Below are positions 3,991 through 30,746 of a stretch of 34,589 nt of DNA, one piece after another. This stretch comes from an uncultured Ignavibacteria bacterium (GTDB lineage: Bacteria > Zixibacteria > MSB-5A5 > SM1-73), in NCBI GenBank assembly GCA_964345305.1, contig CAYFQZ010000544.1:1-34589 (forward strand), in the 5' to 3' direction. Every line of letters starts with the position of its first letter. Position 1 is the first letter of the stretch. A model generated the notes under the pieces. The model made no database searches and was not told where the DNA came from. It worked only from the letters and a program-made list of their open reading frames with translations. The translations under genes were made by a program, and so were the position numbers.

Positions 3991-4083
3991 AACAGCTCCC
4001 TGGCGATAAGCCAAAAGAAGAAATCAGGTTTGTTTTGACTTTCACTCAATGATACGCACCCGCTTAACCTTTCCCCTGCCTAC

Positions 4084-4111
4084 AATATAGAAAAAACTCC
4101 GGCTCTGTCAA
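4084..4111 (-). promoter_or_regulatory. Near-consensus sigma70 promoter for the C25/dockerin gene
   Basis: The minus strand reads TTGACA (4106-4111), a 16-nt spacer GAGCCGGAGTTTTTTC, then TATATT (4084-4089). It lies ~90 nt upstream of ATG 3990, in the divergent intergenic region shared with the histidine kinase gene. Confidence 0.55.
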
Positions 4112-6217: not shown

Positions 6218-6292
6218 GGATCTCCGCAGGTCGCATCATGGGAAGAAAGTCGATCTTGCGCGCTTCCGTGTCCTTCCGCAATTGTGGTTGAG

Positions 6293-13542: not shown

Positions 13543-13625
13543 CTTCTTCTCCAAAAACCATAACGTGGATTTGAACCTATCCAATCCTGCGCTATGCACT
13601 TTGGCCATCCTTATCACGCGTTTCT

Positions 13626-16600
13626 CTAGAAAACCGCCTTCAGCTCCATTCTTGCCCGGTGATAAGCCCTTCTGTGCGCCAGGACTTCGCCGGAGTAAGC
13701 CGCGGATGTGACAATATGTGAGCCCCACTTATAATCGAAGAAGAGGCGCCAATCGCAGTTTTCTCCCCGTCCTTTTCCGTCGGAGAGAGCATAAGAAAGA
13801 CTGCCGCCGCCCCGCGGGGAAGCAAGGTGAGTCCATCGAAATTCAGCCTTCAACCTTCCGCGTGAGAGAAGGGACCATACCAGCTTGGGGGACAGGCTGT
13901 AGATGTCCACCCTTGTGCCGCTGATCTCTTGGTCCCTTCTCCGGTACTGCGCAGACGCGTTGAGTTCCAGTGCCCGAGCCTGCCTTCTGGTAAATCCAAG
14001 ACTCACGCCCTTGCCCATAACAAGATCTCTGGTCCCTCCCTCTCGCTTGTCTTCGATCTCTTCGGCGTCTATCTGGAGCTCAAGGAAATGTACGGAGGAA
14101 ATACGGGATCTCAACAGAAGCTCGTGTTTGAGCGTTTCGTGTTGTCTGTCCCCATTTGACAGCAGCCTTTCTGCCTCTTCACTCTTCTCCCATCTGAATC
14201 GAAGGTTGAGGGGTCTGGAACCGTCGAGAAAGTACAGGTCATGCCGAACCAGCACATTCTGAGAGAGAATCTCCTTATCCGGCAGACCCGTAAGGGGATA
14301 GAGAAAGTAGAAAGCCAGCGACCTTCCTCCCGCCAATCTTCCTCTGAGGCTGAGGAAGGAATCGGTGGACAGTAGCCTTGCTACTCGCCACCAGAAAAAG
14401 CTGGGCCGTTCCCTGGATGACAGCTTGTTGGGAGAAAAGATCACCCTCACGCTTTTGTTCACCTCTGACGATGGCTGGCCCTCCCCCACCCATTCCGACA
14501 GCCGGACGAAGTCGCCCTCTGGATCGGCAACATAGTCTCCGTCTTCGTATCGATAGTTCCCTCTCCCTTCCTCCACCTCCAGATAGCTGTCCACCCTGCG
14601 GGAGGAGTGAATCTGGTTTTGGGAATGATAGAATTTTACGTTGACGATCTGGCTGGGAGGATAGAAATCCATTCTGCTTGTCACCAAATCCCATTTGTTT
14701 TCCGAACCCTCGGAACCACTTTGTTTCTTTATCCTTCGGGTAAACTCGAGATCCGAGGAGAGCATGGCCCGGAAGTCGCGCAGGGAGAGGCGCTGACGCA
14801 CGCTGTAGCCGAAAGACTTTTTCTCTTGGAAACCCTGACCCTCCCGATAGGTCAACTGCGTGCTGGTTCTCAAGCTGGGCGATAAACCCAGGCTTACCTC
14901 CCCGCCGAGCTGATCAAAATTGTCCCTCTCAGCAGCCGATGCCCAAGTGGCAGCGTTGTTCCTTTCCCGCTGCCAGGATAGCTCAGCGTAGAGCCTTCTG
15001 TACCTGCTGCTCAGAACCACCAGGTTCCTTGTCTGCAGGCCATCTTTTGTCGCCCCCCCATCCCCGGTCATCCTTGATTTGATCCTCTCGGTCTTTGCCT
15101 TCGCAGAAGCCCAGCTTACAGGAACCAGCTGGGTGCCCAAACTCATCTTTCTTACGGCGAACTCTCCTTCCGCCTGAAGCTTCCCATATCCGAAATCGAC
15201 CTGGAACGATTTGGAGGGCGCGACAAGTCCGCTGAACTGATAAGTTTTCTCGTCTGTGGAGACAGACTCTTCGGTCAGCCCCCATGTTCTCGCCTTCTCC
15301 ACCGGCTCTACCCTCCCGAACGGGGCGAAGTCGCGGCCTATCAGCCTATACTCCCCTTCAAGTCTGATCAGGTGGAACTCCGGCTTGAGAAATTGAAAAT
15401 CCGTCCTATGGTAGGCGGATCTGACCAGAAGCGCGTCGCCCCAGTTATTCTCGTCATCCTTGCCAGAGAAAGTATTCTTATCCCTCTTGCTTTTGGCCCA
15501 TTCCATCTCGGCCTTCAAATTCTCCGCAGGACGCAGGGAGAGACTCAAGTCAAGAAGAGAATGGCTCTCAGGCAAAGGCAGAAGCACCACGGGCGAAAAG
15601 CCTCCGTTCCCCGGATACACGTATTGGCATATGCCGCCTCCGATATAGCTGTAGCTTCCCTTTCCCGGCCCCACCCAGGAGAATGAGACCCGGTAGGAGC
15701 CCGAGTCGCTGCCTGCGTATCGGTAATAGGGGACACCCAGAGAATCGTGGGCCAGTTCGTACTCTCCTTGACCTTTCCCTACGAACTCGGCGCCATCTCT
15801 CGAGGCCATGATTCTGTCGCTTCCGGCATCGCTGAGGATCTTCCTGTCCTCTGCAGAGAGGGTGAAGGCGGAAGGACGGTTTCGGTCGTCCTCCTCCAGT
15901 ATTCCCGAAGCCTTAAGCTTCAGCCTCCCGTCGAGAAATGAGGCGCCGACATTCGCGCCGTGAAAATCCCTTCTGTAATCCTCTACCGAATATTCGAAAT
16001 CGACGGCTATCCTGGTCTCCGAGGTAACCAGCCTTCTTGGGGTAAACTCAAGCGTGCCCCGGCCGTAGTCGATGCTATAATCGTTATTCGAGCCCCTTTC
16101 CATCTTTTCCCCGTCCACCCACACCGACTCTGTTCCGGGCAGGACCGTTATGTTGGTCTCTCCGTTTCTGCCCTTCAACCGGTAGGGGCCCTGTTTGTTG
16201 TCCTGGCCATAAAACCTGTTGGTGAAACTCTCGCCATTGGTGGAGGCGAAGGCAACCGAGGCCGAGGCTCTGCCGCTTCTGGCCTGTGCCGTCACCCCCT
16301 TCAGTTTCTTCTGGTAGAAAGACAGCTCCGATTCTGGAGTGGTGAGATAATAGTCTCCCAGCGTGCCGGAGAAATTCCGGGACTTGACCAGCATTTGGAC
16401 TTTGTCCAGCTCTGCTAACCTCTTTGTGCTCCCTTCGGGCAGGGCGGGCATGTTCTGATCCGAAAGCTGGAGCGAGACCTCCAGATTCCTCGCAGCATTT
16501 CCTTTGGCCGAGAGCCGCAGGCCCTGTTTCAGCGAAACGTCCTCAGAAGAGCCCACCTCGAATGAAAAGGTCTTGCTTCCAGACAGAACGATCTCGGAAG

Positions 16601-17174
16601 ATGCCTGTCTGGAGGGGAACTTCAGACCGCCCCCTTTGTCGACCCCGGCCAGTGTGCCTCGTATGGACGTAGACTGAGCCGCAGGGGGCTCGCTGGCCGC
16701 CCGCACCAGCTCCCGGTGAAAATAACGTCTCCTCAAGTTAAACTTGAACTTTTTATACCTAATCTCAAGTGAATCAGTGGGATAAAGGGCGGCGGAGAAG
16801 CTGATCTGACCACGGTCGTAGTCCATTGAGTAGTCTACATCTCGCCTCAGCACAAGCCCGTTCTTCTGCACCACGTCCGTATTCTCGAAAATCAAATGAT
16901 CCTTAAGCCTGTATGGACCGGGCGTTCCGTTTCCGGTCAAATGCACCACTACTTCCATGTCGAGATCTGACGGCGGGTCGCTCGCCGCCCCACCGATAGC
17001 GGGCCAACATGTGAAAAGAAGCGCCAGCATAATGGCTGCCAGCGGCTGAGCAAAGGGCTTTGCCCTGCCACCAGAGACAAAATTGCCCCCACATGAAGAA
17101 GGAAAGATGAGCCATCTGGTGGAGGGATGCACCGGTTTGGATCCTTCGCGTGCTTCCGGCGGTAACTTTCTCAT
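13626..17174 (-). CDS. Large (1182 aa) secreted protein of unrecognised family, predicted outer-membrane beta-barrel
   Basis: The ATG is preceded by AGAGG. A hydrophobic signal-like segment is AAIMLALLFTCWPAIGGAAS. Two Ig-like modules share GPYRLK...DYS[MI]DY.RG. Long runs of alternating amphipathic beta-strand pattern follow. The C-terminal OMP-type beta-signal is ...ARMELKAVF. No catalytic motif is recognised. Confidence 0.8.
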   Translation of the reverse strand: MRKLPPEAREGSKPVHPSTRWLIFPSSCGGNFVSGGRAKPFAQPLAAIMLALLFTCWPAIGGAASDPPSDLDMEVVVHLTGNGTPGPYRLKDHLIFENTDVVQKNGLVLRRDVDYSMDYDRGQISFSAALYPTDSLEIRYKKFKFNLRRRYFHRELVRAASEPPAAQSTSIRGTLAGVDKGGGLKFPSRQASSEIVLSGSKTFSFEVGSSEDVSLKQGLRLSAKGNAARNLEVSLQLSDQNMPALPEGSTKRLAELDKVQMLVKSRNFSGTLGDYYLTTPESELSFYQKKLKGVTAQARSGRASASVAFASTNGESFTNRFYGQDNKQGPYRLKGRNGETNITVLPGTESVWVDGEKMERGSNNDYSIDYGRGTLEFTPRRLVTSETRIAVDFEYSVEDYRRDFHGANVGASFLDGRLKLKASGILEEDDRNRPSAFTLSAEDRKILSDAGSDRIMASRDGAEFVGKGQGEYELAHDSLGVPYYRYAGSDSGSYRVSFSWVGPGKGSYSYIGGGICQYVYPGNGGFSPVVLLPLPESHSLLDLSLSLRPAENLKAEMEWAKSKRDKNTFSGKDDENNWGDALLVRSAYHRTDFQFLKPEFHLIRLEGEYRLIGRDFAPFGRVEPVEKARTWGLTEESVSTDEKTYQFSGLVAPSKSFQVDFGYGKLQAEGEFAVRKMSLGTQLVPVSWASAKAKTERIKSRMTGDGGATKDGLQTRNLVVLSSRYRRLYAELSWQRERNNAATWASAAERDNFDQLGGEVSLGLSPSLRTSTQLTYREGQGFQEKKSFGYSVRQRLSLRDFRAMLSSDLEFTRRIKKQSGSEGSENKWDLVTSRMDFYPPSQIVNVKFYHSQNQIHSSRRVDSYLEVEEGRGNYRYEDGDYVADPEGDFVRLSEWVGEGQPSSEVNKSVRVIFSPNKLSSRERPSFFWWRVARLLSTDSFLSLRGRLAGGRSLAFYFLYPLTGLPDKEILSQNVLVRHDLYFLDGSRPLNLRFRWEKSEEAERLLSNGDRQHETLKHELLLRSRISSVHFLELQIDAEEIEDKREGGTRDLVMGKGVSLGFTRRQARALELNASAQYRRRDQEISGTRVDIYSLSPKLVWSLLSRGRLKAEFRWTHLASPRGGGSLSYALSDGKGRGENCDWRLFFDYKWGSHIVTSAAYSGEVLAHRRAYHRARMELKAVF

Positions 17175-17219
17175 GCGTGCCTCTGCTTCGTCGGGCGGTT
17201 CGGAGATGACCGTTGCCCC

Positions 17220-18167
17220 CTATCTTAGAAGCTCAAAGATTAGTATGCGATTGTTCCCGGAATCGACGACCAGGAGCTGGCTTTCCCCTACCACTTTCAG
17301 GTCAGTGGGTCTGGACAGATTGGCCATTCCAGGTATCGACTTCCCATATTCCGCTAGCGCATTGCCGTCCGGATCGAATACCACCACGCTGTTTTTCCCG
17401 CTGTTTGCCACGTAGACCAACCCGTCTTTGCCTACCGCAACGCCGTTCGGGTCTTCCAGAACCTGCTCGCCGAAACTCCTCAATGTGTTTCCGAAAGAGT
17501 CAAAGACGACTATGCGGCTATTCTGTGAGTCCGCAACGTAAACGTCTCCGTCCCGGTCTACGAAAATTCCCTTGGGATCGCGCAGACCCGTCTCCGATTC
17601 TCCGAAGCCTCCAAAGCTCCTCTCGTATTCAAAGAACGAATTCAACTTGAACACCTGGTCGCTCTCCATGTCCGACACCAGAATCTCCCCGGAAAAAGTG
17701 ATACCTATTCCCTGCGGCAGACCGAGCCCCAAGAAATCGTTCTGTTCCCGGATTTCAAGGGTGGAGACGAAGTTGAGGCTGCGATCCAGCCTCTGTATTC
17801 GCTTGTTCTGAGCGTCGACCACGTATATGTTCAGCCCATTGTCGGTGGCTATGTACGCGGGGCGATTGAACTCCCTGCTGCCCCATCCAAAGCCCCCGGC
17901 CTCCGCCAGAAACCTTCCCTCACCGTCACACTTGACCACCCGGTCGTTGCCGGTATCGGTGATAAAGATGTTCCCCAGCGGATCAACTGCGATTCCGATG
18001 GGCAGATATAAAGAAGCACTGCCCAGTTTTCTATCCCCGATGATCCCCACCGGGTTGAGCCCCTTAACCTTTTCTTCCAGGTGCAACCCGTTTTCGCCGC
18101 CCCGCTGTTTCCCGCCGAAGGACATGCAGGCACAGCATAGAACCAGAAAAAAGGGCAGGCATCTCAT
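17220..18167 (-). CDS. NHL-repeat beta-propeller protein (secreted/periplasmic)
   Basis: I prefer ATG 18167, which gives the signal peptide MRCLPFFLVLCCACMSFGG; AAGGAGAGG lies upstream. There are six NHL-like blades, e.g. GIAVDPLGNIFITDTGNDRVVKCD, YVVDAQNKRIQRLD, YVADSQNSRIVVFD, YVANSGKNSVVVFD and LVVDSGNNRILIFE. Confidence 0.85.
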   Translation of the reverse strand: MRCLPFFLVLCCACMSFGGKQRGGENGLHLEEKVKGLNPVGIIGDRKLGSASLYLPIGIAVDPLGNIFITDTGNDRVVKCDGEGRFLAEAGGFGWGSREFNRPAYIATDNGLNIYVVDAQNKRIQRLDRSLNFVSTLEIREQNDFLGLGLPQGIGITFSGEILVSDMESDQVFKLNSFFEYERSFGGFGESETGLRDPKGIFVDRDGDVYVADSQNSRIVVFDSFGNTLRSFGEQVLEDPNGVAVGKDGLVYVANSGKNSVVVFDPDGNALAEYGKSIPGMANLSRPTDLKVVGESQLLVVDSGNNRILIFELLR

Positions 18168-18425
18168 TCTTCTCAATTCGGCCTCTCCTTTACATTTAAG
18201 CTTCAGCCCATCGCATCCCCACAAAGTCTGCTTGCTTCCAAACGTGGCCGTATCCGCGGGATTTTCCAAATGCGCCGATCCATCCGGCATCTCTCATGGA
18301 CCGGAATAGACCCGGGCCGGCTCCCGCACCTTGCCGTTTTTTCCTCGCCGTTCTCACGCCAACGCCGACAGGCAGGGCGCGGCACCCCGGTATGGTAGTC
18401 CGCCAACCGAAAGAAAAGACGACAA

Positions 18426-18463
18426 CCCAAAAACCAAAAATCGCATCCTGGGTCGATGCGATT
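18426..18463 (-). terminator. Intrinsic terminator after the second paralog, splitting the minus-strand array into two transcription units
   Basis: The minus-strand RNA reads AAUCGCAUC-GACCCAG-GAUGCGAUU, a 9-bp stem from 18439-18447 / 18455-18463. It runs into UUUUUGGUUUUUGG. The site is ~50 nt after the TAA at 18513-18515. Confidence 0.7.
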
Positions 18464-18512
18464 CGGTTAGCAAGATGCCGGGTCAATCGATTCTCGAAAG
18501 CGAGCTTTCTTC

Positions 18513-20337: not shown

Positions 20338-23300
20338 CTATTTGACGATGGCCATCTTGAAGAACACCACCTGGCTTTGGCTCGTCGATTTTGCCTCCAC
20401 CCGGCAAAGGTAAACTCCGCTCGCAAACCCGGAGCAGTCCCAAATTCGCTCGTTATGCGTGCGCCCCTGTCCCGGCCCCGGGAATTGATCAACCAACATT
20501 CCTGAGAGATCATAGACTCTTATCCCGACCGCTGCGTCCTCTTTCAAGAAGTACCTGATAATCGTTTCATCCCCGGCCGGATTGGGATAGTTGAAGGCGG
20601 TCTTCTGTGGCAGCAAATCACCGGCCAGAGCGGGGAGTTCGGGCAGCTTCTCTTTGGGGAAGTAATTGGTGTGCCCGGCATCGAAGCCATACATGGGCCA
20701 AGGCATGCTCTCCTCCGTGTCCTGGGCGGGTAAGTCCCAGGCGTAGATGAAGCCATCATCACACGCGACCAGGAGTTCCACGTCGCTGTCTCTGTCAAGG
20801 TTGATCAGAAGCGGCGATGATCTAACCGGTCCGCCGACCGGAAGAGGGAAACCGCCTACCATCCTACCATCTCTGCTGTAACCCACGATTCGCCCGTCTT
20901 TAGTGCCGACGATTATGTCGGGATACCCGTCTCCGTCAGCGTCTCCCAGAATCGGCGAAGAGTCGATCAGATCTGTGCCGCCGCCCGGGAGGCTCAGCAT
21001 GACCGGGAAGTTACCCACCGGCGCACCATTAAAATTGTAAGCAAAGATCTTGTTGCCCGAGGCCAAGATTATCTCCAGATAGCCATCTTTATCCAGGTCT
21101 CCCAGAACCGGGGCGGACGCAATACCTTCGCCAGCTGATACGGGGAATCCTTCCAGCAAACCCAGTTCTGTGTCATAGGCGTATATCTCTCCTCCTGCCA
21201 TGCAGCAGAAGACCACGTCGCTGCTGCCGTCCCTGTCCAGGTCCCCTACCACCAGGTGGCGTCCTATGTCTCCACACGCGTCGGTACACTCCACAAAGTC
21301 CTGAGAGTAGATGTTCCACTTACATAGTTGAGCCTCATGTCCCTGGTGACTTGTTACCACGAAATTGACAGTGCAGTCTCCGGTGGTTGCCAGCCCGTAA
21401 ACGGACTTCTGGAAAGGGGAGGAATACAGAACTTCGCCTGCAGAGGAGATAACGACAACGCCGACGTCCAGAATTCTGTCAGTCGCCACAAATATCTCCA
21501 GGCCTGATTTCGAGGAGTCGAAATTGGCGATCACCGGCATCGTCGTAATGCCGGTTGGCGCCGGGTCACCCAGCTGAAGGGGGAAGCCATCTACGGGGTC
21601 CGCTCTTCCGTTCTGGTCTCGATCATAAGGATGCCAGACGCAGACTTTGCCCTTCGCAGTTGCCGCCACCACCTCCAAGGTGTCGTCTCCGTCCAAGTCA
21701 CCCAAGGATGGGGGTCCGACAAAGTCCTCGTTCTCTTCGGCGAATATGGCCAGCGGCAGTGTGGTCAGGGTGGAATCGTATAGCATTATCTCCACCGAAT
21801 CCGGATACGGGAACAAGCTGGCACCTGAAGCATCCCACCCGTGTATGAACCGACCGGAGGAAGCGAATATCCTTAGGTCATTCTCCGCAGAGACCAGAGA
21901 GCTTACCCCCGCCTCGGGAATGAACTTTTGAGGGAAACCGGCCTGAACCCAGGCTGTGGAAACATCCAGCGTCATTACCGTATCCGATCGGCCGACATCG
22001 GCGACCTGGATGTGGGTGTCCGACCCGCCTCTGCTTCTTGACGAAGGAAACGTGTAAGGACCAAAATCGGCATTATTGCCCCGGCGAAACATGTCCTCGG
22101 CCCGGCCAAACCCGGTGTAATAGTTGCCTCCGAAATCTATGATGCCGTCCGCCTCCTCCAGTTCCAGAAAGCGCCGATCCTTATCCACCTGGAGGTGATT
22201 GTCCCAGAAGTTGTTCAGTCCGTCAAGATCGTAGTCATAATAGGCCACATCTTCGTCCAGATGCCAGATGAGAGTTCCCGAGCCTGGCAGAAGCCAGTCA
22301 TATTCCCGGTTGTAATCCAGCTCGGCATCCACCGGACCCAGGATGACGTTGGTGGCGCTGTCCGCCCGCAGTGCGCTAAATCCGTCGCCGTCCAAGTCCT
22401 GCTGGCGATTCTCCACCAGAAAATACTCGCTCGGACTGATGGGAATCCGGATCAGTCGAAGCTGGTCGGTCAGCATCTCGGATGCTCGCAGCTCTATCTC
22501 CGTCTGATTCTTGATCTCCACCGGTTCTACGAATCCGAGGAAGGCCTTGCTCCACGCGCAGGGGTAAACCGGCAGCACGCCGTTGACGAAAACGTCATAG
22601 CCCACATCCACCCCTACGTTTTGGGCATTGTTATCCATCAAAGCGAAATCGCCCACCTGGGTCATGAAGTTTACCGAATTATACAGATCGGGCAGACCCA
22701 ATTGATGACCAAACTCGTGAGCGAACTCCGCATTCAAGGCACCGACTCGATTGTCTTGTGATCTGGTTTCCGGCATAAAAATACCGTCCGTTATTGGAAA
22801 CGTGTCGCCGTCCACCCACACCGTATCACTAAGCCTGATGTAACCGGTGAAAAGATCTCCCGGGGTGGGATTGACCAGTTCTCCCAGATCGCTCTGCAGG
22901 TCCGAGCCGGCGTGAAAGATCACAAAGCAATCATACTGTGAGAAGTCGATTCCGTAAATCTGCGGATCTTCGTACACCGAGAAGGAATCCGCCAGATTGA
23001 AGCTGTCGTGGAAGAACTGTCTGAGCATCTCCACCTTGTAGGAGAGAGACGAATCCGGGGCGCCGTAGTGAGCCATGGCATCTGGCAGCCGATAAGCCAG
23101 GCTCTCGTGTTTGGGAAAGACCTGGCCTTCCAGCGCCAGCCCTCCGCTTGATACCGTCGACCAGTAATTGTGCAGGGCCTGAATATGCTTGGTGAAGAAA
23201 AGCGTATCGTGAGGCGAGGGGTCTATCAGGTGGCCTTCCTCCTGCAAGAACTCCTCCTGAGCTCTCATGTCGAAAAGTCCGTTGCCCGTGGTTCGGGGAT

Positions 23301-23616
23301 CGTCCGGAATCTCTTCCTCAAACTCCACCCTGATGGCCAAAATCCTGAGCGTCCTCATTTGCGGAAAGGCAACCTTGGATAGGCGCGGAGGGGAAAACGG
23401 AGCCTCTCTTTCCAGTGCCAGCAGGTTCCGCTGAGACACGTCGCTTATGAAGCCGAGATTCTGAACCGGTCTGGTTGATTTTTCCTCGAAGGGCGGGCTA
23501 TCCTTGTCCCGAATCCGAAGCACCCGTTCGGAGCTTGGATGCGCCAGTCCTGCAAAACAGAAAAAGGCGACCGTGGTCGCGCCGATCAATTGGAACAGAA
23601 CTTTGGCTCTTTGCAT
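20338..23616 (-). CDS. M6 (immune inhibitor A-like) zinc metalloprotease fused to FG-GAP/VCBS repeats and a T9SS-type C-terminal sorting domain
   Basis: The signal peptide is MQRAKVLFQLIGATTVAFFCFAGLA. The M6 signature is AHEFGHQLGLPDLY. Five FG-GAP-like repeats are visible (GDLDGDDTLEVV, GDLDRDGSSDVV, GDLDKDGYLEII, GDADGDGYPDII, NLDRDSDVELLV). The C-terminal domain starts at FNYPNPAGDETIIRYFL. Confidence 0.9.
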   Translation of the reverse strand: MQRAKVLFQLIGATTVAFFCFAGLAHPSSERVLRIRDKDSPPFEEKSTRPVQNLGFISDVSQRNLLALEREAPFSPPRLSKVAFPQMRTLRILAIRVEFEEEIPDDPRTTGNGLFDMRAQEEFLQEEGHLIDPSPHDTLFFTKHIQALHNYWSTVSSGGLALEGQVFPKHESLAYRLPDAMAHYGAPDSSLSYKVEMLRQFFHDSFNLADSFSVYEDPQIYGIDFSQYDCFVIFHAGSDLQSDLGELVNPTPGDLFTGYIRLSDTVWVDGDTFPITDGIFMPETRSQDNRVGALNAEFAHEFGHQLGLPDLYNSVNFMTQVGDFALMDNNAQNVGVDVGYDVFVNGVLPVYPCAWSKAFLGFVEPVEIKNQTEIELRASEMLTDQLRLIRIPISPSEYFLVENRQQDLDGDGFSALRADSATNVILGPVDAELDYNREYDWLLPGSGTLIWHLDEDVAYYDYDLDGLNNFWDNHLQVDKDRRFLELEEADGIIDFGGNYYTGFGRAEDMFRRGNNADFGPYTFPSSRSRGGSDTHIQVADVGRSDTVMTLDVSTAWVQAGFPQKFIPEAGVSSLVSAENDLRIFASSGRFIHGWDASGASLFPYPDSVEIMLYDSTLTTLPLAIFAEENEDFVGPPSLGDLDGDDTLEVVAATAKGKVCVWHPYDRDQNGRADPVDGFPLQLGDPAPTGITTMPVIANFDSSKSGLEIFVATDRILDVGVVVISSAGEVLYSSPFQKSVYGLATTGDCTVNFVVTSHQGHEAQLCKWNIYSQDFVECTDACGDIGRHLVVGDLDRDGSSDVVFCCMAGGEIYAYDTELGLLEGFPVSAGEGIASAPVLGDLDKDGYLEIILASGNKIFAYNFNGAPVGNFPVMLSLPGGGTDLIDSSPILGDADGDGYPDIIVGTKDGRIVGYSRDGRMVGGFPLPVGGPVRSSPLLINLDRDSDVELLVACDDGFIYAWDLPAQDTEESMPWPMYGFDAGHTNYFPKEKLPELPALAGDLLPQKTAFNYPNPAGDETIIRYFLKEDAAVGIRVYDLSGMLVDQFPGPGQGRTHNERIWDCSGFASGVYLCRVEAKSTSQSQVVFFKMAIVK
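20341..20601 (-). other. T9SS type-A / FlgD-Ig-like C-terminal domain of the M6 protease
   Basis: TAFNYPNPAGDETIIRYFLKEDAAVGIRVYDLSGMLVDQF...SGVYLCRVEAKSTSQSQVVFFKMAIVK. This fits the NYPNP...[IV]Y[DN]..G+LV...GVY.[YC][RK] pattern of Por secretion tails. Confidence 0.75.
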
Positions 23617-23688
23617 TTCAGATGACGGTTGTGGATCTTTGAGTTCATCGTGCCAGCCGGAACGGCTTTGCTGCGATTTGCGGCTAAC

Positions 23689-26262
23689 TTAGAATCTCCC
23701 GGTCATGGAGAACCGCATGGTATTGGACAGGGCCGATGTCTTGCTTGAAGGGATGTAGGCGAAATCGAATCTGAAGAGGCCGTACTGCAATCCCGCGCCG
23801 AACGTCGGGTTTTTCACGTCGCCAACCTTGTCGTACACGTATCCGGCGCGCAGGGAGACGTAGGTTCCATACCAGTATTCCGCACCCATATTCAGGATGG
23901 CCTCCTCAAGCTCCTGGCTGACGGGATCGTCCAGACCAACACGTTCCTTGTTTACCTCGAGTGTCCCGGTCAGACGATTAAACGGACTGTCCACGATCCG
24001 ATAGGCCAAGCCCACTGCCAAGTTACGTGGCAGAGGATCGGACTGGTTCAGATCGATGTAGGCGATGTTGCGACCCAGGTTGGTCAAGGCCGCTCCCAGA
24101 GTCAGCTTCCTTATCGGGGTCTTGTACAAAAGTCCCGCGTCCAGGGCGAAGGACGATCCTGACCCCTTGCCCTTCTCCAACCCCGCTCCCTGGTCGGCCA
24201 AATGGCTGTAGATTACTTTGGCAGAGAGGCCGGTGGACAGGCTGGGACTGAGCCGGCTACCGTAGGAGAAGGTGAATGCCATCTCGTAACTGTCGAAGGT
24301 TCCCAGTACGTTGTTGAATTCGTCTGTGCGGACGTTTTCGCCCAGGGAGAGGAAAGTCAGATTCGCGCCCACCGTTCCCCATCCCTCCATGTGGACGACG
24401 CCCGAAAGGTAGTCATAATACAGATCGCTGGCCAGTTCGGGCAGCCAGTTGGCGTGCATGAAGGTAATCTCCCTCTTGGCGTGGGCATATATAACCACCT
24501 TCTCTGCGGTGGCAAACCACGACTCTCCATCTTGATGGACGATCTTCTTGGTGCTCTGCCGCTCCAAACCAGCGTGGTAATACCTGCTCCAGCTTTCCCC
24601 GTCCCATCTTATGGTCCCGTACTGTGTTCCCACGAACAGCTTATTCGACCCGGCCTCGGTCAGCGAGAGAATCATGCTCCCCAAGGCATTGTAGTAAACA
24701 TATATCTTGGCTCCAGGTTCCAGCTTCCCGGTGGGATCCAGCCGGTTGTAATCTATGATCATCTGGGAGAGCTTCGAGATCCTCTCCTGATCATCCGATC
24801 TCAAGAACTGCCGCGCCACCGAGTTGACGTCGTCTCCTTCCTTGGCGTCATAGAGCCGGTAACCGTAGGTAAACCATCTGTCTCCGTCGTACCTTTTCAG
24901 GCCGCGGTCGGTTCCGACCCATAGATTTGCCCGACCGTCCAGGCTGAGCGCGGTGACCTTCCCGCTCAGCGCCAGCTCGTAAGGAAGGTTGATGACCTGC
25001 CCCGCTCCCAGAGCGGAATCGCCGAGCGAGTTGTATGCCTTGACCGCGGCTACCGACTGGGCGACGATGTTTTCGTTTTCGCTGCCCAAGAATCTTTGGA
25101 CCACCTTCTCCAGTTCGTCTCCAATTCTGAATGAGTACTGCTCATGCGGCTGCCACGATTCACCGTCGAGTTTGAAAAGCCTGGTCTCGGTGGCGGCCCA
25201 GAACTCCCTTTCCCCGACGTTTGCGAAATCCACCACAGCCACATCCTCCACATCTCCCGCGAAAGGCACGTTGGTCCACTTGGTCCCGTCGAATTTCACC
25301 GCACCCTGATCGGTCCCCACCCACGCGTAACGCCTGGAGACGGCCAGAATCGCAGTTATGCGATTTGACGGGAGACCATCTTCGCTCGAGAATCTGCGCC
25401 ACCTCTTTCCATCGAAGGAATGAAGACCACTCTCGCTTCCTATCCAGAGCATCTTTCCGTCCGAGGACATAGACGTAAGTTTTCCGTCGAACAGTATCCG
25501 GTAGGGAATCTTCACCGACCCGGGCAATCTTCCGGTGACAACTTGGCGAAGTAGAGAAGAGATTTCTTCGGTCTCTTTGGATGAAAGGGCATCATCGCTC
25601 AAGAAGTCGTTCACCCTGGAAACAAGATTTGAGAGATTCTCTGACGACAGAAGCAACTCATCCCAGGAGGTCAGCACATCTTCCCACAGCGACGAAAGAT
25701 CTTCTCCCGCCTGTTGGCTCCGCTCCAGAACCTTCTTTTTCAATGCCGACAGCGAGTCCTTGCCGACCGAATGATTGAATTCGGCGGTAAGCTCCTTCAT
25801 CCGCGCTATCTTCGCCTGGTCCTGCACCTGCGAAAACTTGGCCAGTATGCTCTCCAGCGTCTCGCCGGTCGAGGGAGAGTATCTCTCGTAGTTGAGCCAT
25901 TTACCCCGGTGCAGCCTGAACAGATCCGACTCACTGATCGCCCAGACATCGTACCGTTTGTAGTTCAACTCCGGTATGTCGTTTCTCAACAGAGCCATCG
26001 ATTCAAGCTCAAACTCAGCCGGCAGCGGATACTCCAACCAGGTGGAAGTCAGGGGATAGACCCCCAGACCTGCCGGATTCCAGTGGGTGGCCGTGGCATC
26101 ATCCGAGATGGCCACAAAAGCCTCGCCCATTCCGGCAGCCCTGGCCCCGGCCGCTATCCGCAGGAACAAAACGGCGGATCGGCTTACGTCGGCACGACAA
26201 TCCGAGCCAGCAAACCCGATCATCCAACCCATTAAGAGACAGGCAAGTATTACCTTCCTCAT
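23689..26262 (-). CDS. porV: PorV(LptO)-like outer-membrane barrel with a large inserted LysM-like/propeller region
   Basis: I prefer ATG 26262, preceded by AAGGAGG with an 8-nt spacer, which gives the signal peptide MRKVILACLLMGWMIGFAGSDCRA. An alternative is ATG 26319, preceded by GAGGA. The PorV hallmark is FLRIAAGARAAGMGEAFVAISDDATATHWNPAGLG. C-terminal barrel strands include PLPRNLAVGLAY and end MRFSMTGRF. The gene lies directly downstream of the PorU-like gene. Confidence 0.8.
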   Translation of the reverse strand: MRKVILACLLMGWMIGFAGSDCRADVSRSAVLFLRIAAGARAAGMGEAFVAISDDATATHWNPAGLGVYPLTSTWLEYPLPAEFELESMALLRNDIPELNYKRYDVWAISESDLFRLHRGKWLNYERYSPSTGETLESILAKFSQVQDQAKIARMKELTAEFNHSVGKDSLSALKKKVLERSQQAGEDLSSLWEDVLTSWDELLLSSENLSNLVSRVNDFLSDDALSSKETEEISSLLRQVVTGRLPGSVKIPYRILFDGKLTSMSSDGKMLWIGSESGLHSFDGKRWRRFSSEDGLPSNRITAILAVSRRYAWVGTDQGAVKFDGTKWTNVPFAGDVEDVAVVDFANVGEREFWAATETRLFKLDGESWQPHEQYSFRIGDELEKVVQRFLGSENENIVAQSVAAVKAYNSLGDSALGAGQVINLPYELALSGKVTALSLDGRANLWVGTDRGLKRYDGDRWFTYGYRLYDAKEGDDVNSVARQFLRSDDQERISKLSQMIIDYNRLDPTGKLEPGAKIYVYYNALGSMILSLTEAGSNKLFVGTQYGTIRWDGESWSRYYHAGLERQSTKKIVHQDGESWFATAEKVVIYAHAKREITFMHANWLPELASDLYYDYLSGVVHMEGWGTVGANLTFLSLGENVRTDEFNNVLGTFDSYEMAFTFSYGSRLSPSLSTGLSAKVIYSHLADQGAGLEKGKGSGSSFALDAGLLYKTPIRKLTLGAALTNLGRNIAYIDLNQSDPLPRNLAVGLAYRIVDSPFNRLTGTLEVNKERVGLDDPVSQELEEAILNMGAEYWYGTYVSLRAGYVYDKVGDVKNPTFGAGLQYGLFRFDFAYIPSSKTSALSNTMRFSMTGRF
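24469..26049 (-). other. ~530-aa insertion inside the PorV-like barrel: three LysM-like segments alternating with Reg_prop-type propeller blades
   Basis: LysM-like segments are YSPSTGETLESILAKF...LPGSVKIPY, YSFRIGDELEKVVQRF...YNSLGDSALGAGQVINLPY and YDAKEGDDVNSVARQF...YNRLDPTGKLEPGAKIYVYY. Propeller blades include LWIGSESGLHSFDGKRW, AWVGTDQGAVKFDGTKW, LWVGTDRGLKRYDGDRW and LFVGTQYGTIRWDGESW. The boundaries are approximate. Confidence 0.6.
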
Positions 26263-26367
26263 ATCGAAAACCTCCTTGCGATCCCAGCTATTACCGTCAT
26301 GCGCTTCAGCTGATTTCATGGACTTTCCTCTGGTTCCCAGGTTCTGTGTCTTTACTGCTCGACTTGA

Positions 26368-26395
26368 AATATAGCCATTTCTTTAAAATCGGCAA
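26368..26395 (-). promoter_or_regulatory. Possible internal sigma70-type promoter ahead of the PorV-like gene
   Basis: The minus strand reads TTGCCG (26390-26395), a 16-nt spacer ATTTTAAAGAAATGGC, then TATATT (26368-26373). It sits in the 199-bp gap between the PorU-like and PorV-like genes. The -35 element is weak. Confidence 0.3.
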
Positions 26396-26461
26396 GATTT
26401 TTGGAAAGATGAACGCACCTGGAAAGTGAGCTTCTTCCCTATGAGTGAGTCTCATCGTCTC

Positions 26462-29400
26462 TCACCGCACTACCAGCGCCTTTCCGAATGCCTCCTTTGT
26501 TTTCCTCTCTCCATTTACCGTGCCTTCCGCAGTGATCTTGTATATGTAAATGCCGTTGGCCACCTTGTCTCCGTCGTCGTCTTCTCCGTTCCACGTGGTC
26601 GAGAAGTTGTATCCGCTGCGCGCTGAGGCAAAGGGTATGTGCCGGATCAGCCTTCCTGCCTGGGTAAATATCTTTATCTTCACCCTATCCACGTCGGGCG
26701 ATAGGTTATAGCAGAAACTGGTCGTCTCCGAGAAGGGGTCGAAGGGGTTGGGGTAGTTCATGACCTGGGAAAGTTCAAGCTCCCGGCGCTGGCTCACCCT
26801 AACCCTTACTTCTTTCACGGACGAGTTATTGGCGTTGTCCCAGGCCTTTATGGTGAGCGCGTGATCACCTTCCGACAGGTTTGGCAGAGGATGTTCAAGC
26901 GAGCCCTGCTGGTAGCTTCCCATATCGTACTCAAAACTCTGGGTGAGATCGAGCTGATTCTGGAAGTCCTGGTCGATCGTCAGGGTGATGCCGTGTCCCA
27001 CCTCGCCGGTGATGTTGATTCCGTGCTCATCAAACAGGGCGAGCCCGAGGAGGGAGTTGGGGAGTATCGTCTCTCCGTCAACAAAGATCTGCCTGTCGTC
27101 GAAGCTTAACGTTATCTGCGGCCCGACCGTATCTATCACCGTGGTATCGGAGCCTCTGATCACCAGGGAATCGCGAACCCCGGCCCCGTCTTGGTTCTGA
27201 CCCTGCAGGTAGACGCTGATCCTGCCCGTATTTCCCCCATAACTTATGTCCTTGGGCACCACGAAGCTGGCCTGGAATCTTCCTCCCTCCACATCCGCGT
27301 CGCCTTTGAACATGACCAGGCCAGGCAGATCATAGTCCACCTTCGCCCCGTTGGGCATGGTATGGCTCCTTTCTCTTTCGGAGTCAAAGGCCAATATCCT
27401 GACCGTTCCGTCCAGGCCGGTCATCAATTCACCCGTGCCGTCCCTGATCTCGCCGTCGACGCTCACCAGGCTCAGGGCGGAGATGGTATCCGGCTGTACC
27501 TGGGTCAACACCGCTTCAAGCCTGGGTGCTGCCAGCTTCATCACCGGGTCGCCGAAAAGAACGAACTGCCGGTCGTTGGAGTTGGGCTGCCTCAGGAGCT
27601 TGGCGATGAAAAGAGCCTCGCCGATGGACAGGGAGTCCTGATTCAGCAGAAGGTCGTAAACCTTGTAGTTCAGCGCGGCATTCGGGTCTGGAAAAACCAG
27701 CCAGGTAGCCGAGATGGTGGCGATGGAGCCTTTGTCCTGGCTTCTCAGGAACTGCTCCCCCATTCCCTCTCCAAACGGGTTGAAGAACAGACCGATACTG
27801 CACGAGGCCGTGTATATCAAAGGCAGCTTTCGCCCGTTACGGAGCCGCGGAATGTCCTGACTGCGCTTGAAAACCTTCTCGTGCGCCCACACGTCCGGGT
27901 TGCCATGCCCCATATAGTTGATGATCAGCGTACCGGAGTTGAAAGCGTTTATGATCGCATCCTCGGCCTCTGGCTTCTCCTCCTTAAGGTCAAAGGGATA
28001 CTCCATCAGATATATCTTGCTCAGATTAAAAACCGGCGGAACGTGAAGATCGGCCAACTCCTCTGTATCCCGCGTGTGAAATCCTTCGGAGTTTGAGGTG
28101 CTGGTGAATTCATCATCGGCCACCAGCGTGATCAGATTTCTCCAGGTTCCGAGTTGGGGATCGTCTTCATAGCCGATGACCTTATCCAACACCACCTGAA
28201 CCTCCTCCTGGCTCCTCACCGGCCATCGGGCGATTACCATGTCCAGTCCCCTATCCAGCGGCCCGTAAGCGGAATCCGAATCCAGGAAACCGTATCTGCC
28301 GAAGTAGACGTAATTGTCGTCCGAGACCGATCGGTCTCCTTCCCAGGTGGGAGTGAAGGGAGGCATGAAGTTATCCGTGCCGGTTCCCAGATTGTCCTTG
28401 TAATCGTAATGCCCGTCCCCCACCAGCAGCGTATATGCAGGCGCAGGTCTCCTCCAGTTCTGATGGGCGAACTTCAGGAAGTCCCTGATGGCCACCGGAT
28501 CAGGAAGACCTCCCGAGAACTCATCATACACGTCCTGAACCCCGATCACCCTCGTTGACATCTGGTTGAACGATTCCCGAAAGCTCTTCAGGCTGTGCAT
28601 CTGGTCACAGAAATCCGAATGAGTGATGATCAGAAAATCCGCCTGGTTTGAGACCCCCCTTAAGTCCGATTTCTCGTCGGCGAAAAACCGCACCGGCTTT
28701 TTGATCCTGCTTTCGTCCGCCAGAAGGTACCTGCTTGTCGCGTCTGTCTTGACCGTATCCTGGAAGGTGGCAACCTCACCATCTATCTGGGCGCCGATGA
28801 TTCTCTTGACGTCAAAATAATCGGTGAGCTCAAGCAGAAGTATATCAGGCGAGTGGAGGTTGGAGATCTCATATTGGGCCACACCCTCGGCATCAGGGCT
28901 TTCGAACCAGAGCCGCCGGTCGTGAAGCTCGAATCTTCGAGGGTATTCTATCTCGTACCAGTCCAGATAAGCGCCGCCGGGAAAGGCAATGTCCAGAGTA
29001 TCGACCATTCCCCCGTGAAACTCAAAACTCCGGGCCACGGTCATGGAGGCCGACGACAGCGTATCCAGGATCTCGGCCGGCTCAGCGTTCACCCACAGGC
29101 TGGGATGGGCGTCCGTATGCTTGACTCTGATCAAACACGCCTCCTGGGGCACCGCACCCGGCAAGCTAACAAAGAACCGGGCAGAAGGAGTCTCCATCCA
29201 GTACCAGTTAAAGTAGTCCGCCACATAGCCTGTCGGATAAACTCTCAGGCTGTTGTCCTGCTCGGCATGGGTTCTGGACCTAAACTGAGAGACCGGGTTC
29301 TGTGCCACCGGAGTTCCGTCCTTGGTGCCCATCCGCTTGGGAATGTCCGGAAAAGGCGAGGTGGGTTTGGGGCTGAATGTCAGCCAGAAAACGTTTTCGT

Positions 29401-30466
29401 CGGTGAAGGGATTGGTGTGAAATCCGGTGACCTTTCCCCCGGAATCGTAGTCCCAGTCATTCGTCGACCAGCCATAAAAGAGAACATAGTCTTCCGGGTC
29501 AAACGTGCCGTCCTCTTCCCCCGACACCAGGATGGCGATCTCCTCCAGTTGCAGAAACGGATTGGAATTGTCCAGGGGCAAAACCCGGCCTCCGCCGGAG
29601 AACATCCTCATGGTTCGAGGATCCAGAGAGCTTACCGGAACGCCCGCCTGAACCAGCACGGATCGGTCGATTTTGTATATGGCATTCTCCCGCACCACCG
29701 CCTTGTACCAGTTGTCAGAATGCCCGAACGGGTAGGGAACAGCTAGCTTGGGCAGGGCCGGCTGATCTTTGGTTCTTCGCCACGCTCGGGATTCATCGTA
29801 ATTGAGCAACAGGTTTTGGTAAACCCTCTCGAACGACCCTGTGCTTTCCTCGATTCTTCCCGCGCCACCACCCAGAAAGCTGACGGCTATTGTGATACGT
29901 GTGTAGTATCTGACGGTTTTTCGGACAGGATTGTACTGGACCGGGTGGATCTCCAACTGGACTATCCTCTGGCCTCTCATGAAGATTGGAGCATCAAACG
30001 AAACGATCTCAGGAGGATATAAGCGGTCCTGAGTCTTTCTTGTGGCCGAAGGCACGGCACGGTAGCCCACCTGAGCATTTTCATCGTGGCTTATCCTGGC
30101 TCCATATGCCAAATCTATATTCGATAGTTCTCCCCCTTCTTTATCCAAAATGTCCACCCAGACGTCTCCTTCCACTGGAACTCCGATGATCACCCTTCTC
30201 ACCGGCGCCAGGGGTTCTCCGGGCAGGTTTGCCAATCCACATTTGCTGATGTTTATTACGTCGAAGAATCGACCCCCCATTTCAATCTTTCCGCTCTCGA
30301 TTTCGGGCACCAGATAGCGGAAGGTCACGCCATCCTGATCCGAGCTGAGTATCTCCATATCATCGTATTCGGAGGCGGCGGCTGCCCCGTTCCAGAGGCA
30401 GCATGATAGCACTCCCAAGATCGTCAGGACGGACAGAAAGACTCGTGTAGAACTCACTGTCTCCAT
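26462..30466 (-). CDS. porU: PorU-like C25 cysteine peptidase (candidate T9SS C-terminal signal peptidase/sortase) with its own CTD
   Basis: I prefer ATG 30466, which gives the signal peptide METVSSTRVFLSVLTILGVLSCCLWNGAAAAS. The track ORF starts at 30592. The N-domain is propeptide-like. C25 dyad contexts are INYMGHGNPDVWA and LIYTASCSIGLF. The C-terminal domain is FlgD-Ig/T9SS-type. The gene lies immediately upstream of the PorV-like gene, the arrangement conserved for porU-porV in Bacteroidota. Confidence 0.8.
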   Translation of the reverse strand: METVSSTRVFLSVLTILGVLSCCLWNGAAAASEYDDMEILSSDQDGVTFRYLVPEIESGKIEMGGRFFDVINISKCGLANLPGEPLAPVRRVIIGVPVEGDVWVDILDKEGGELSNIDLAYGARISHDENAQVGYRAVPSATRKTQDRLYPPEIVSFDAPIFMRGQRIVQLEIHPVQYNPVRKTVRYYTRITIAVSFLGGGAGRIEESTGSFERVYQNLLLNYDESRAWRRTKDQPALPKLAVPYPFGHSDNWYKAVVRENAIYKIDRSVLVQAGVPVSSLDPRTMRMFSGGGRVLPLDNSNPFLQLEEIAILVSGEEDGTFDPEDYVLFYGWSTNDWDYDSGGKVTGFHTNPFTDENVFWLTFSPKPTSPFPDIPKRMGTKDGTPVAQNPVSQFRSRTHAEQDNSLRVYPTGYVADYFNWYWMETPSARFFVSLPGAVPQEACLIRVKHTDAHPSLWVNAEPAEILDTLSSASMTVARSFEFHGGMVDTLDIAFPGGAYLDWYEIEYPRRFELHDRRLWFESPDAEGVAQYEISNLHSPDILLLELTDYFDVKRIIGAQIDGEVATFQDTVKTDATSRYLLADESRIKKPVRFFADEKSDLRGVSNQADFLIITHSDFCDQMHSLKSFRESFNQMSTRVIGVQDVYDEFSGGLPDPVAIRDFLKFAHQNWRRPAPAYTLLVGDGHYDYKDNLGTGTDNFMPPFTPTWEGDRSVSDDNYVYFGRYGFLDSDSAYGPLDRGLDMVIARWPVRSQEEVQVVLDKVIGYEDDPQLGTWRNLITLVADDEFTSTSNSEGFHTRDTEELADLHVPPVFNLSKIYLMEYPFDLKEEKPEAEDAIINAFNSGTLIINYMGHGNPDVWAHEKVFKRSQDIPRLRNGRKLPLIYTASCSIGLFFNPFGEGMGEQFLRSQDKGSIATISATWLVFPDPNAALNYKVYDLLLNQDSLSIGEALFIAKLLRQPNSNDRQFVLFGDPVMKLAAPRLEAVLTQVQPDTISALSLVSVDGEIRDGTGELMTGLDGTVRILAFDSERERSHTMPNGAKVDYDLPGLVMFKGDADVEGGRFQASFVVPKDISYGGNTGRISVYLQGQNQDGAGVRDSLVIRGSDTTVIDTVGPQITLSFDDRQIFVDGETILPNSLLGLALFDEHGINITGEVGHGITLTIDQDFQNQLDLTQSFEYDMGSYQQGSLEHPLPNLSEGDHALTIKAWDNANNSSVKEVRVRVSQRRELELSQVMNYPNPFDPFSETTSFCYNLSPDVDRVKIKIFTQAGRLIRHIPFASARSGYNFSTTWNGEDDDGDKVANGIYIYKITAEGTVNGERKTKEAFGKALVVR
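26465..26761 (-). other. T9SS / FlgD-Ig-like C-terminal domain of the PorU-like peptidase
   Basis: MNYPNPFDPFSETTSFCYNLSPDVDRVKIKIFTQAGRLIRHI...WNGEDDDGDKVANGIYIYKITAEG...KALVVR. Confidence 0.75.
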
Positions 30467-30718
30467 AGACAGAAAAGCCGAGTAAACCCTCAAAACGCAG
30501 AAGCTCTTCCCTCTAAGATTTTCGGGAAGCACTACTCGGCTGGATGGCCTACAATCGCTCCAGCCAAAAGGGTTCGGGACTGACTTCCTCATAGAATCGA
30601 CAAGGACCTTCCGCTATTTACCTGCCGCAGAGACTCAGGCACAAACATCGCGGATTCGAATAACAAACCCTTTAGCTGTTGCTCCTATAGGCTTACCTCT
30701 CTTTGATTTATTTTCCCT

Positions 30719-30746
30719 ATTATACAATACAAATCCGTTTTGTCAA
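30719..30746 (-). promoter_or_regulatory. Consensus sigma70 promoter upstream of the PorU-like gene
   Basis: The minus strand reads TTGACA (30741-30746), a 16-nt spacer AAACGGATTTGTATTG, then TATAAT (30719-30724). It sits in an AT-rich gap ~100 nt after the aldolase stop. It is ~125 nt upstream of ATG 30592 and ~250 nt upstream of ATG 30466. Confidence 0.6.

Follow-up and report, generated by a model that had tools for sequence, protein, structure and literature searches.

We analyzed a 34.6-kb stretch of DNA, referred to below as the window, which is the entire contig C544 of a 3.99-Mb metagenome-assembled genome (MAG) from the phylum Zixibacteria (668 contigs, 95% complete, 8% contaminated). 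Five genes of the minus strand, located downstream from a class II aldolase gene, lie between a promoter-like and a terminator-like site: porU for a type IX sortase, a porV-like gene for an outer-membrane barrel, a gene for an M6-like metalloprotease with FG-GAP propeller and secretion tail, and two genes for DUF5683-like proteins (Table 1). An initial annotation, made from the sequence, had described the first three as a C25 peptidase, a PorV-like barrel and an M6/FG-GAP protein with a tail, and all three lie where it had placed them, on the minus strand. Its guess that the host belongs to a non-Bacteroidota lineage of the Fibrobacterota-Chlorobiota-Bacteroidota (FCB) type also proved right, as the MAG is assigned to Zixibacteria and homologues of the proteins bear Zixibacteria names. 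The evidence presented below makes it likely that the stretch represents a porU-porV operon that serves type IX-style secretion and sorting.

Table 1. Features of the five-gene module and its surroundings in the window.
Feature	Position	Strand	Remarks
porU, type IX sortase (C25 cysteine peptidase)	26462..30466	-	1334 aa from Met43; ORF open to 30592
Gingipain-type prodomain (Propeptide_C25), PorU N-terminus	29792..30361	-	PF08126, aa 78-267
C25 catalytic domain	27533..28636	-	PF01364 over aa 653-1020
C25 dyad	His896 27905-27907; Cys931 27800-27802	-	intact
PorU C-terminal domain (type IX tail, FlgD-Ig-like)	26495..26755	-	FlgD_ig 39.9 bits; TIGR04183 borderline
porV-like outer-membrane barrel	23689..26262	-	857 aa from Met20; ORF open to 26319; AAGGAGG upstream
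PorV insert, ~530 aa	24475..26067	-	beta-propeller (Reg_prop type), helical region, two LysM-like modules; between N-terminal conserved segment and barrel strand 1
M6-like metalloprotease with 8-bladed FG-GAP propeller and type A tail, 1092 aa	20338..23616	-	HEFGH 22705-22719; tail 20371-20589
First DUF5683-like protein, 294 aa	19388..20272	-	AAGGAGG upstream; PF18935 23.7 bits, just below cut-off 26.7
Second DUF5683 protein, 279 aa	18513..19352	-	PF18935 29.2 bits vs 26.7; last gene before terminator-like site
Sigma-70-type promoter-like site TTGACA-N16-TATAAT	30719..30746	-	12/12 consensus match; candidate
Intrinsic-terminator-like hairpin and T run	18438..18464	-	10-pair stem, then TTGGTTTTTG
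NHL propeller	17220-18290	-	context gene after module
Giant barrel, 1182 aa	13626-17174	-	context gene; no family match
Omp85	11959-13728	-	context gene

The probable start of porU is Met43, because a signal peptide comes after this residue; the resulting gene boundary is the one given by the initial annotation. Residue numbers of PorU are counted from the start of the open reading frame (ORF). The protein matched the PorU equivalog model NF033707 with 761.5 bits against a cut-off of 420, and the match covered model positions 4-1088 of 1095. Pfam recognized Peptidase_C25 (1.9e-82), Propeptide_C25 (4.3e-23) and FlgD_ig (4.2e-10). A search of the PDB returned PorU of Porphyromonas gingivalis (6za2) with 3.6e-71 and 243 bits, far ahead of gingipain R (RgpB; 1.6e-07, 32 bits). 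PorU and 6za2 align over residues 380-1138, with the tail alignment reaching residue 1138 of 6za2, and the motifs YMGHGNP and YTASCSIG line up with the segments of P. gingivalis PorU that contain the His and the Cys. Both dyad residues are invariant in an alignment with three relatives (A2). The initial description of a C25 protein of more than 1300 aa with an intact His/Cys dyad and a C-terminal domain of its own is thus borne out, as is its identification as PorU.

The 29 C25-domain matches in the genome and the gingipain-type prodomain of the protein could also point to a secreted gingipain-like protease that happens to lie beside a generic FadL-type transporter. We consider this extremely improbable, since the PorU equivalog is matched end to end and the top fold matches of the neighbouring barrel are PorV chains. 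The C25 tree argues in the same direction. It was built from 20 domains of the same genome, including PorU and a dockerin-bearing C25 protein encoded at 520-4014, together with 28 PorU-type domains from other lineages. In this tree, which holds no named gingipain, the PorU-type sequences form one clade supported by a Shimodaira-Hasegawa-like approximate likelihood ratio test (SH-aLRT) value of 100, and the 19 other paralogues of the genome, the dockerin protein among them, fall outside; the clustering with ordinary gingipain-like proteases, which the initial annotation had named as the outcome that would speak against PorU, was not seen. On the PorU model the dockerin protein reaches 67 bits, and its PDB match is gingipain R, not PorU. 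In a sample of 121 Zixibacteria genomes, PorU is present as a single copy in each.

The prodomain is an addition to the sortase known from P. gingivalis. It precedes the span of the PorU model, whose match begins at aa 292, and its PDB match is the pro-domain of gingipain R2 (4ief_A, 4.4e-10). The prodomain suggests zymogen control of the sortase.

Several observations on other C25 proteins were made along the way. The 29 matches amount to a large expansion within the genome. The dockerin-bearing peptidase of the window (1164 aa, minus strand) combines a gingipain-type prodomain with a choice-of-anchor J domain and a dockerin that replaces the type IX tail, and sits behind a TTGACA-N16-TATATT site at 4084-4111 (-). 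Between the two C25 loci lie genes for a GAF-PAS histidine kinase (4388-6217, +) and a 1131-aa Ser/Thr kinase-AAA-TPR protein (6284-9679, +), which are possible regulators. Genomes of the KSB1/Zhuqueibacterota type (loci L041, L049, L052, L059-L061, L063, L064 and L091) encode a tandem pair of porU genes (~1330 aa each) with no adjoining porV.

In the window, porV lies 199 nt from porU, and its probable start is Met20. The protein scored 245.7 bits on the PorV/PorQ subfamily model NF033709 (cut-off 90). Foldseek returned PorV chains of the Flavobacterium johnsoniae SprA-PorV translocon (8gl6_F and 6h3i_F) as best matches, followed by the periplasmic propellers of Bacteroides hybrid sensor kinases; the barrel matched the PorV structures with E values of 1e-15 to 1e-13 and a template modelling (TM) score, normalized by target, of ~0.6. 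The initial annotation was therefore correct about the family. It had made no mention of the size of the protein, which at 857 aa is twice the normal size and contains an insert. PorVs adjoining porU in other phyla measure 327-431 aa, and the usual size of the single-domain protein is ~330-400 aa. F. johnsoniae PorV aligns in two blocks, residues 6-64 with aa 23-84 and residues 76-395 with aa 620-876 of the window PorV, and therefore ~530 aa are inserted between them. Pfam matched Reg_prop and LysM within the insert. In the AlphaFold2 (AF2) model, which has a predicted local distance difference test (pLDDT) score of 81.8, the propeller, the helical region and the two LysM-like elements are followed by all 14 barrel strands. 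The long PorV was found as one copy in 97 of the 121 Zixibacteria genomes (E<=1e-30), and more than 1000 homologues have this architecture, some of them named Zixibacteria PorV/PorQ. The enlarged PorV is a phylum-wide feature of Zixibacteria.

Strand 1 of outer-membrane barrels usually begins on the periplasmic side. Because all 14 strands of the modelled PorV come after the insert, the insert should be located on the periplasmic side, where it may connect the complex with peptidoglycan or with partners in the periplasm. PorV of Flavobacterium contacts SkpA and SprE through its periplasmic face, and this face is connected to the GldLM motor (PMC10994853). The window PorV differs in that its periplasmic face is predicted to carry a propeller/LysM-like domain of its own. 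The arrangement resembles, in function only, PorE of P. gingivalis, a peptidoglycan-binding periplasmic lipoprotein of this bacterium's type IX secretion system (T9SS) (PMC7192894): both would place a beta-propeller and a peptidoglycan-binding module at the periplasmic side of the outer-membrane parts. PorE is a separate lipoprotein with an OmpA_C-like domain, whereas the LysM-like modules of the window are fused into PorV.

The third gene encodes a protein in which Pfam matched Peptidase_M6, FG-GAP and Por_Secre_tail. The M6 assignment is supported by 25.2 bits on PF05547 (cut-off 22), and the score on TIGR03296 is 79 bits, below 110.8. At its extreme C-terminus lies a type A tail that scored 35.7 bits (hmmscan) or 40.7 bits (six-frame) on TIGR04183 against a cut-off of 23. 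Thus, the architecture proposed by the initial annotation stands, and the tail is more than the generic FlgD-Ig domain that it had considered as the alternative. In the AF2 model (pLDDT 83.6), a part that resembles InhA is accompanied by a propeller of eight blades and a tail folded as a beta-sandwich; Foldseek matched the catalytic part to Bacillus anthracis InhA2 (4yu6) and also returned 8-bladed propellers. The best family is NF052323, a T9SS-dependent M6-like inactivated metalloprotease, with 421 bits; syntenic genes of other phyla come closer (528-570 bits), and all scores stay below the cut-off of 600. Unlike the inactivated family, the Zixibacteria proteins keep the HEFGH motif, which is intact at aa 300 in the window and invariant in Zixibacteria. 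They are therefore probably active enzymes, as far as the motif tells. We also considered the M6-like protein as a replacement for PorZ; this candidate was dropped because the genome encodes a full-length PorZ homologue (259 bits) and the Foldseek match of the M6-like protein to PorZ (5m11) is weak.

We scanned species genomes with the PorU alignment and retrieved 79 loci from Zixibacteria, KSB1, Latescibacterota, Gemmatimonadota, Eiseniibacteriota, Krumholzibacteria, WOR-3, Stahlbacteria and Cloacimonadota. These loci are mutually related, so that the following counts are not independent. Where there was room downstream, porV lay directly 3' of porU in 38 of 68 loci (20 with the long Zixibacteria type, 18 with the short type), which supports the porU-porV adjacency of the initial annotation. 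The M6-like gene came next in 36 of these 38 loci. A DUF5683-like gene is conserved 3' of the M6-like gene in several phyla; the pair follows in most loci with room, and the second member follows the first in 22 of 23. The order porU, porV, M6-like, DUF5683, DUF5683 thus recurs in several FCB phyla. On a Gemmatimonadota chromosome (L125) the cluster ends after the second DUF5683 gene, the same point at which the terminator-like site of the window is located, and we therefore regard the five-gene unit as the conserved core. The recurring order argues that PorU and PorV have conserved partners, and not chance neighbours, in the M6-like protein and the DUF5683 pair.

The M6-like gene might nevertheless be one cargo gene among many that has come to lie beside porV by chance, with no special tie to PorU or PorV. 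There is an appreciable chance that this is so, even if we do not favour it. The tail is a standard type A tail, as in 71 other genes of the genome, the intact HEFGH and the InhA-like fold are typical of secreted proteases, and the existence of a separate PorZ homologue means that the protein does not stand in for PorZ. A chance neighbour would, however, hardly be expected to follow porV from Zixibacteria to Gemmatimonadota, Latescibacterota, Eiseniibacteriota and Krumholzibacteria, and the related curated NCBIfam family NF052323 is named as T9SS-dependent. Moreover, loci in which the HExxH motif was lost still have the gene at this position, which argues for a role beyond proteolysis. Such loss, with position and length kept, was seen in one Gemmatimonadota, one Latescibacterota and two further MAGs (L062:15849-19007, L067:5977-8742, L078:15359-18568 and L080:15173-18259), while all Zixibacteria keep HExxH. 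Hence the initial label of a tail-bearing cargo is right as to the tail and too narrow as to the role, given that across phyla the gene is conserved as a syntenic partner.

The initial annotation had seen no core T9SS gene in the window, and we found none either, save for a weak local SprA-like match (24.5 bits) in the giant barrel. The remaining parts are encoded elsewhere in the genome. SprA matched TIGR04189 with 538.5 bits (cut-off 200) on contig C119, with its N-terminal part on C634, the gene being split over contig ends; the homologue measures ~2000 aa in the lineage. A ten-genome panel that spans several phyla and includes closed chromosomes of Zixibacteria, Gemmatimonadota and Eiseniibacteriota contained SprA in all ten genomes. 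A full-length PorZ homologue on C319 (259.2 bits, cut-off 260) and a PorQ-like barrel on C356 (198.6 bits, cut-off 220) were also detected. Type A tails above the TIGR04183 cut-off number 72 and are spread over many contigs. These results bear on the searches proposed in the initial annotation: core genes are not absent from the genome, and proteins with the same C-terminal domain are numerous. Of the two options it had offered, a self-contained cargo-processing unit or part of a divergent T9SS, they support the second. That the module works without a T9SS translocon, as the lack of translocon and motor genes on the 34.6-kb contig might imply, is very unlikely in view of SprA in this genome and throughout the panel, the PorZ-like and PorQ-like proteins and the dispersed tails.

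Around 20 PorV/PorQ-family matches were found in the genome, and at least seven such barrels lie directly 3' of a gene with a terminal T9SS-type tail (C577:10446-11856, C144:4532-5719, C309:9122-10390, C324:992-1828, C642:2-698, C586:3202-4588 and C39 (L007):1677-3558). The arrangement suggests that dedicated pairs of carrier and cargo, like PorU-PorV and PorZ-PorQ, are numerous. The PorZ-like gene (C319:6797-8983, 738 aa; L121:1774-3990) is followed by a GT4 glycosyltransferase gene (L121:4151-5269), an order that would agree with PorZ being linked to a surface glycolipid.

Components of the motor and ring, PorK/L/M/N or GldK/L/M/N, were not detected. The TIGRFAM models of GldL, GldM and GldN found no match in the genome, in a search that had no positive-control genome. 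The Pfam models GldM_1st, GldL_N and GldN gave no match even at E<=0.1, neither in this genome nor in four relatives, of which two consist of a single contig. GldM, the only model run on the whole phylum sample, was found in none of the 121 Zixibacteria genomes and none of the ten panel genomes, and GldL and GldN likewise in none of the ten, again without a positive control. No GldM was found in the group of 20 genomes to which the MAG of locus L078, labelled 'Bacteroidota', belongs. For GldK, the best matches reached 110-132 bits against a cut-off of 350 and covered the generic FGE-sulfatase half only. In a Bacteroides thetaiotaomicron control genome, the models of SprA and of GldK/L/M/N were all without match. 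We rejected one candidate for PorK, a GldK-like gene on C39 (578-1474): GldK is its best NCBIfam match, yet with 131.7 bits and in the FGE-sulfatase half only, its signal peptide has no lipoprotein cysteine, it occurs in only 12 of 31 relatives, and the downstream ORF is rich in Pro, Arg and Ser, unlike GldL. The status of PorK/L/M/N is therefore not detected, as opposed to shown absent, and the system may deviate from the classical one in its energy source and its ring.

These negatives could also mean that the lineage has an ordinary, complete T9SS whose PorK/L/M/N are too diverged for Pfam and TIGRFAM models trained on Bacteroidota. The missing positive control, the failure of the GldL, GldM and GldN models to match anywhere, and the fact that PorV, PorZ and PorQ of the lineage already fall below their equivalog cut-offs, so that divergence is large, are all compatible with this view. 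We rate it as rather unlikely, because the GldM, GldL and GldN models stayed without match even at the permissive threshold and in the panel, and GldM in the phylum sample as well, because GldK (110 vs 350 bits) is hit in its generic half only, and because the same search approach recovers PorU in 121/121 Zixibacteria and SprA in 10/10 panel genomes.

The regulatory sites are in line with one transcription unit from porU to the second DUF5683 gene as the initial annotation had drawn it, and the consensus promoter that it had reported was found with a match at every position. The window contains three promoter-like sites with at most one mismatch, where 0.04 are expected, and two of the three are directed at the two C25 genes; in the whole genome, 29 perfect TTGACA-N16-TATAAT sites compare with ~0 expected. 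The distance from the promoter-like site to the porU start at Met43 is ~250 nt (30467-30718, -). Rfam and tRNA scans of the window gave no match, and thus no known leader RNA in the long 5' region of porU. Of the strong Shine-Dalgarno sites claimed initially, those before porV and the first DUF5683 gene are present, and nothing obvious precedes porU or the M6-like gene. The terminator-like hairpin was seen as well; it is a consensus match only, and the total number of such sites does not exceed that in shuffled sequence.

Beyond the terminator-like site follow the genes for the NHL propeller, the giant barrel and Omp85 (11959..18290). This trio occurs in the same order in Zixibacteria, Eiseniibacteriota, Krumholzibacteria and further MAGs. 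It lies directly after the porU module at L019, L020, L068, L076, L083, L084, L088, L089 and L093, with a giant barrel of 900-1180 aa that locally bears a weak resemblance to SprA, and was not found downstream of the module in the Gemmatimonadota chromosome L125.

Several points weigh against assigning the locus to a type IX-style system. PorV, PorZ and PorQ all fall below their own equivalog cut-offs: PorV scored 181.6 bits on NF033710, for which the cut-off is 250. This score is the highest among eight scanned PorV/PorQ-family proteins of the genome (next 114.6), and similar values (190.8 and 169.7) were obtained for short PorVs that adjoin porU in other phyla. On TIGR04183, the tail of PorU is a borderline match, with 20.0 bits (hmmscan) or 25.0 bits (six-frame) against 23. 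Given the ~20 PorV/PorQ-family matches, another paralogue could be the general cargo shuttle, and the PorV of the window would then do no more than anchor PorU. Topology rules for barrels are the basis for placing the insert on the periplasmic side, and the N-terminal conserved segment was modelled with low confidence. The MAG is 8% contaminated; the same parts are, however, present in closed Zixibacteria chromosomes. Lastly, an ordinary but diverged motor is compatible with searches that had no positive control.

Despite these points, a porU-porV operon of a type IX-style system remains the explanation that we hold to be likely, and the comparison with known systems shows both what is shared and what is new. 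In P. gingivalis, the attachment complex consists of PorU, PorV, PorZ and PorQ, and the structure of PorU has been determined (6za2; PMC12365241). As in this complex, a C25 sortase with His/Cys dyad and C-terminal tail domain adjoins its own PorV gene, and PorZ-like and PorQ-like proteins are encoded elsewhere in the genome. Unlike P. gingivalis, the window PorU has an added N-terminal prodomain, PorV carries the 530-aa insert, the operon includes three further conserved genes, PorV, PorZ and PorQ are sub-threshold members of their families, and the host belongs to Zixibacteria. The SprA-PorV translocon of F. johnsoniae (6h3i, 8gl6) is matched by the fold of the PorV barrel and by an SprA homologue of ~2000 aa, whereas GldL/M/K/N of Flavobacterium have no detected counterpart.

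By analogy with Porphyromonas and Flavobacterium, Sec-exported proteins with a tail would cross the outer membrane through SprA and pass to PorV (PMC12365241, PMC10994853). PorU would be anchored on PorV through its own uncleaved tail, and would remove the tail of the cargo and might join the cargo to a surface glycolipid delivered by PorZ. Until cleavage, PorU may be held in a latent state by the prodomain. The insert of PorV may attach to peptidoglycan or to partners in the periplasm, akin to the role proposed for PorE (PMC7192894), and the M6-like protein and the DUF5683 pair may be accessory parts or a privileged first cargo.

We tentatively extend this picture to a proposal that we regard as possible, without considering it probable. 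Zixibacteria and several non-Bacteroidota FCB phyla may have an older or alternative T9SS that employs SprA, PorU, PorV, PorZ and PorQ and does without the PorLM motor and the PorKN ring. The conserved five-gene module of porU, porV, the M6-like/propeller/tail protein and two DUF5683 membrane proteins would form its outer-membrane core, often with an NHL propeller, a giant barrel resembling SprA and a dedicated Omp85 next to it. In Zixibacteria, the PorV insert would take over the anchoring or coupling that is performed by separate proteins in Bacteroidota.

The part families are already known, and NCBI models and public annotation name the genes. What is new is the phylum-wide enlarged PorV, the PorU prodomain, the five-gene module across phyla and the lack of a detectable motor and ring. 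In the library searched, we found no paper on type IX secretion in Zixibacteria, and nothing specific on PorU2/PorV2 or on T9SS in other FCB phyla. Most of the T9SS papers found portray the system as a Bacteroidota machine with a PorLM/GldLM motor. Here, the sortase, the carrier, the translocon and dozens of tail proteins appear as core genes of a whole uncultivated phylum and recur in several others. A motor and a ring were detected in none of these genomes. If this holds, the outer-membrane half is able to function, or did so in the past, on a different energy input. If so, a minimal and ancestral T9SS would be definable by comparison, and the M6-like protein, the DUF5683 pair and the PorV insert would be candidates for the missing functions.

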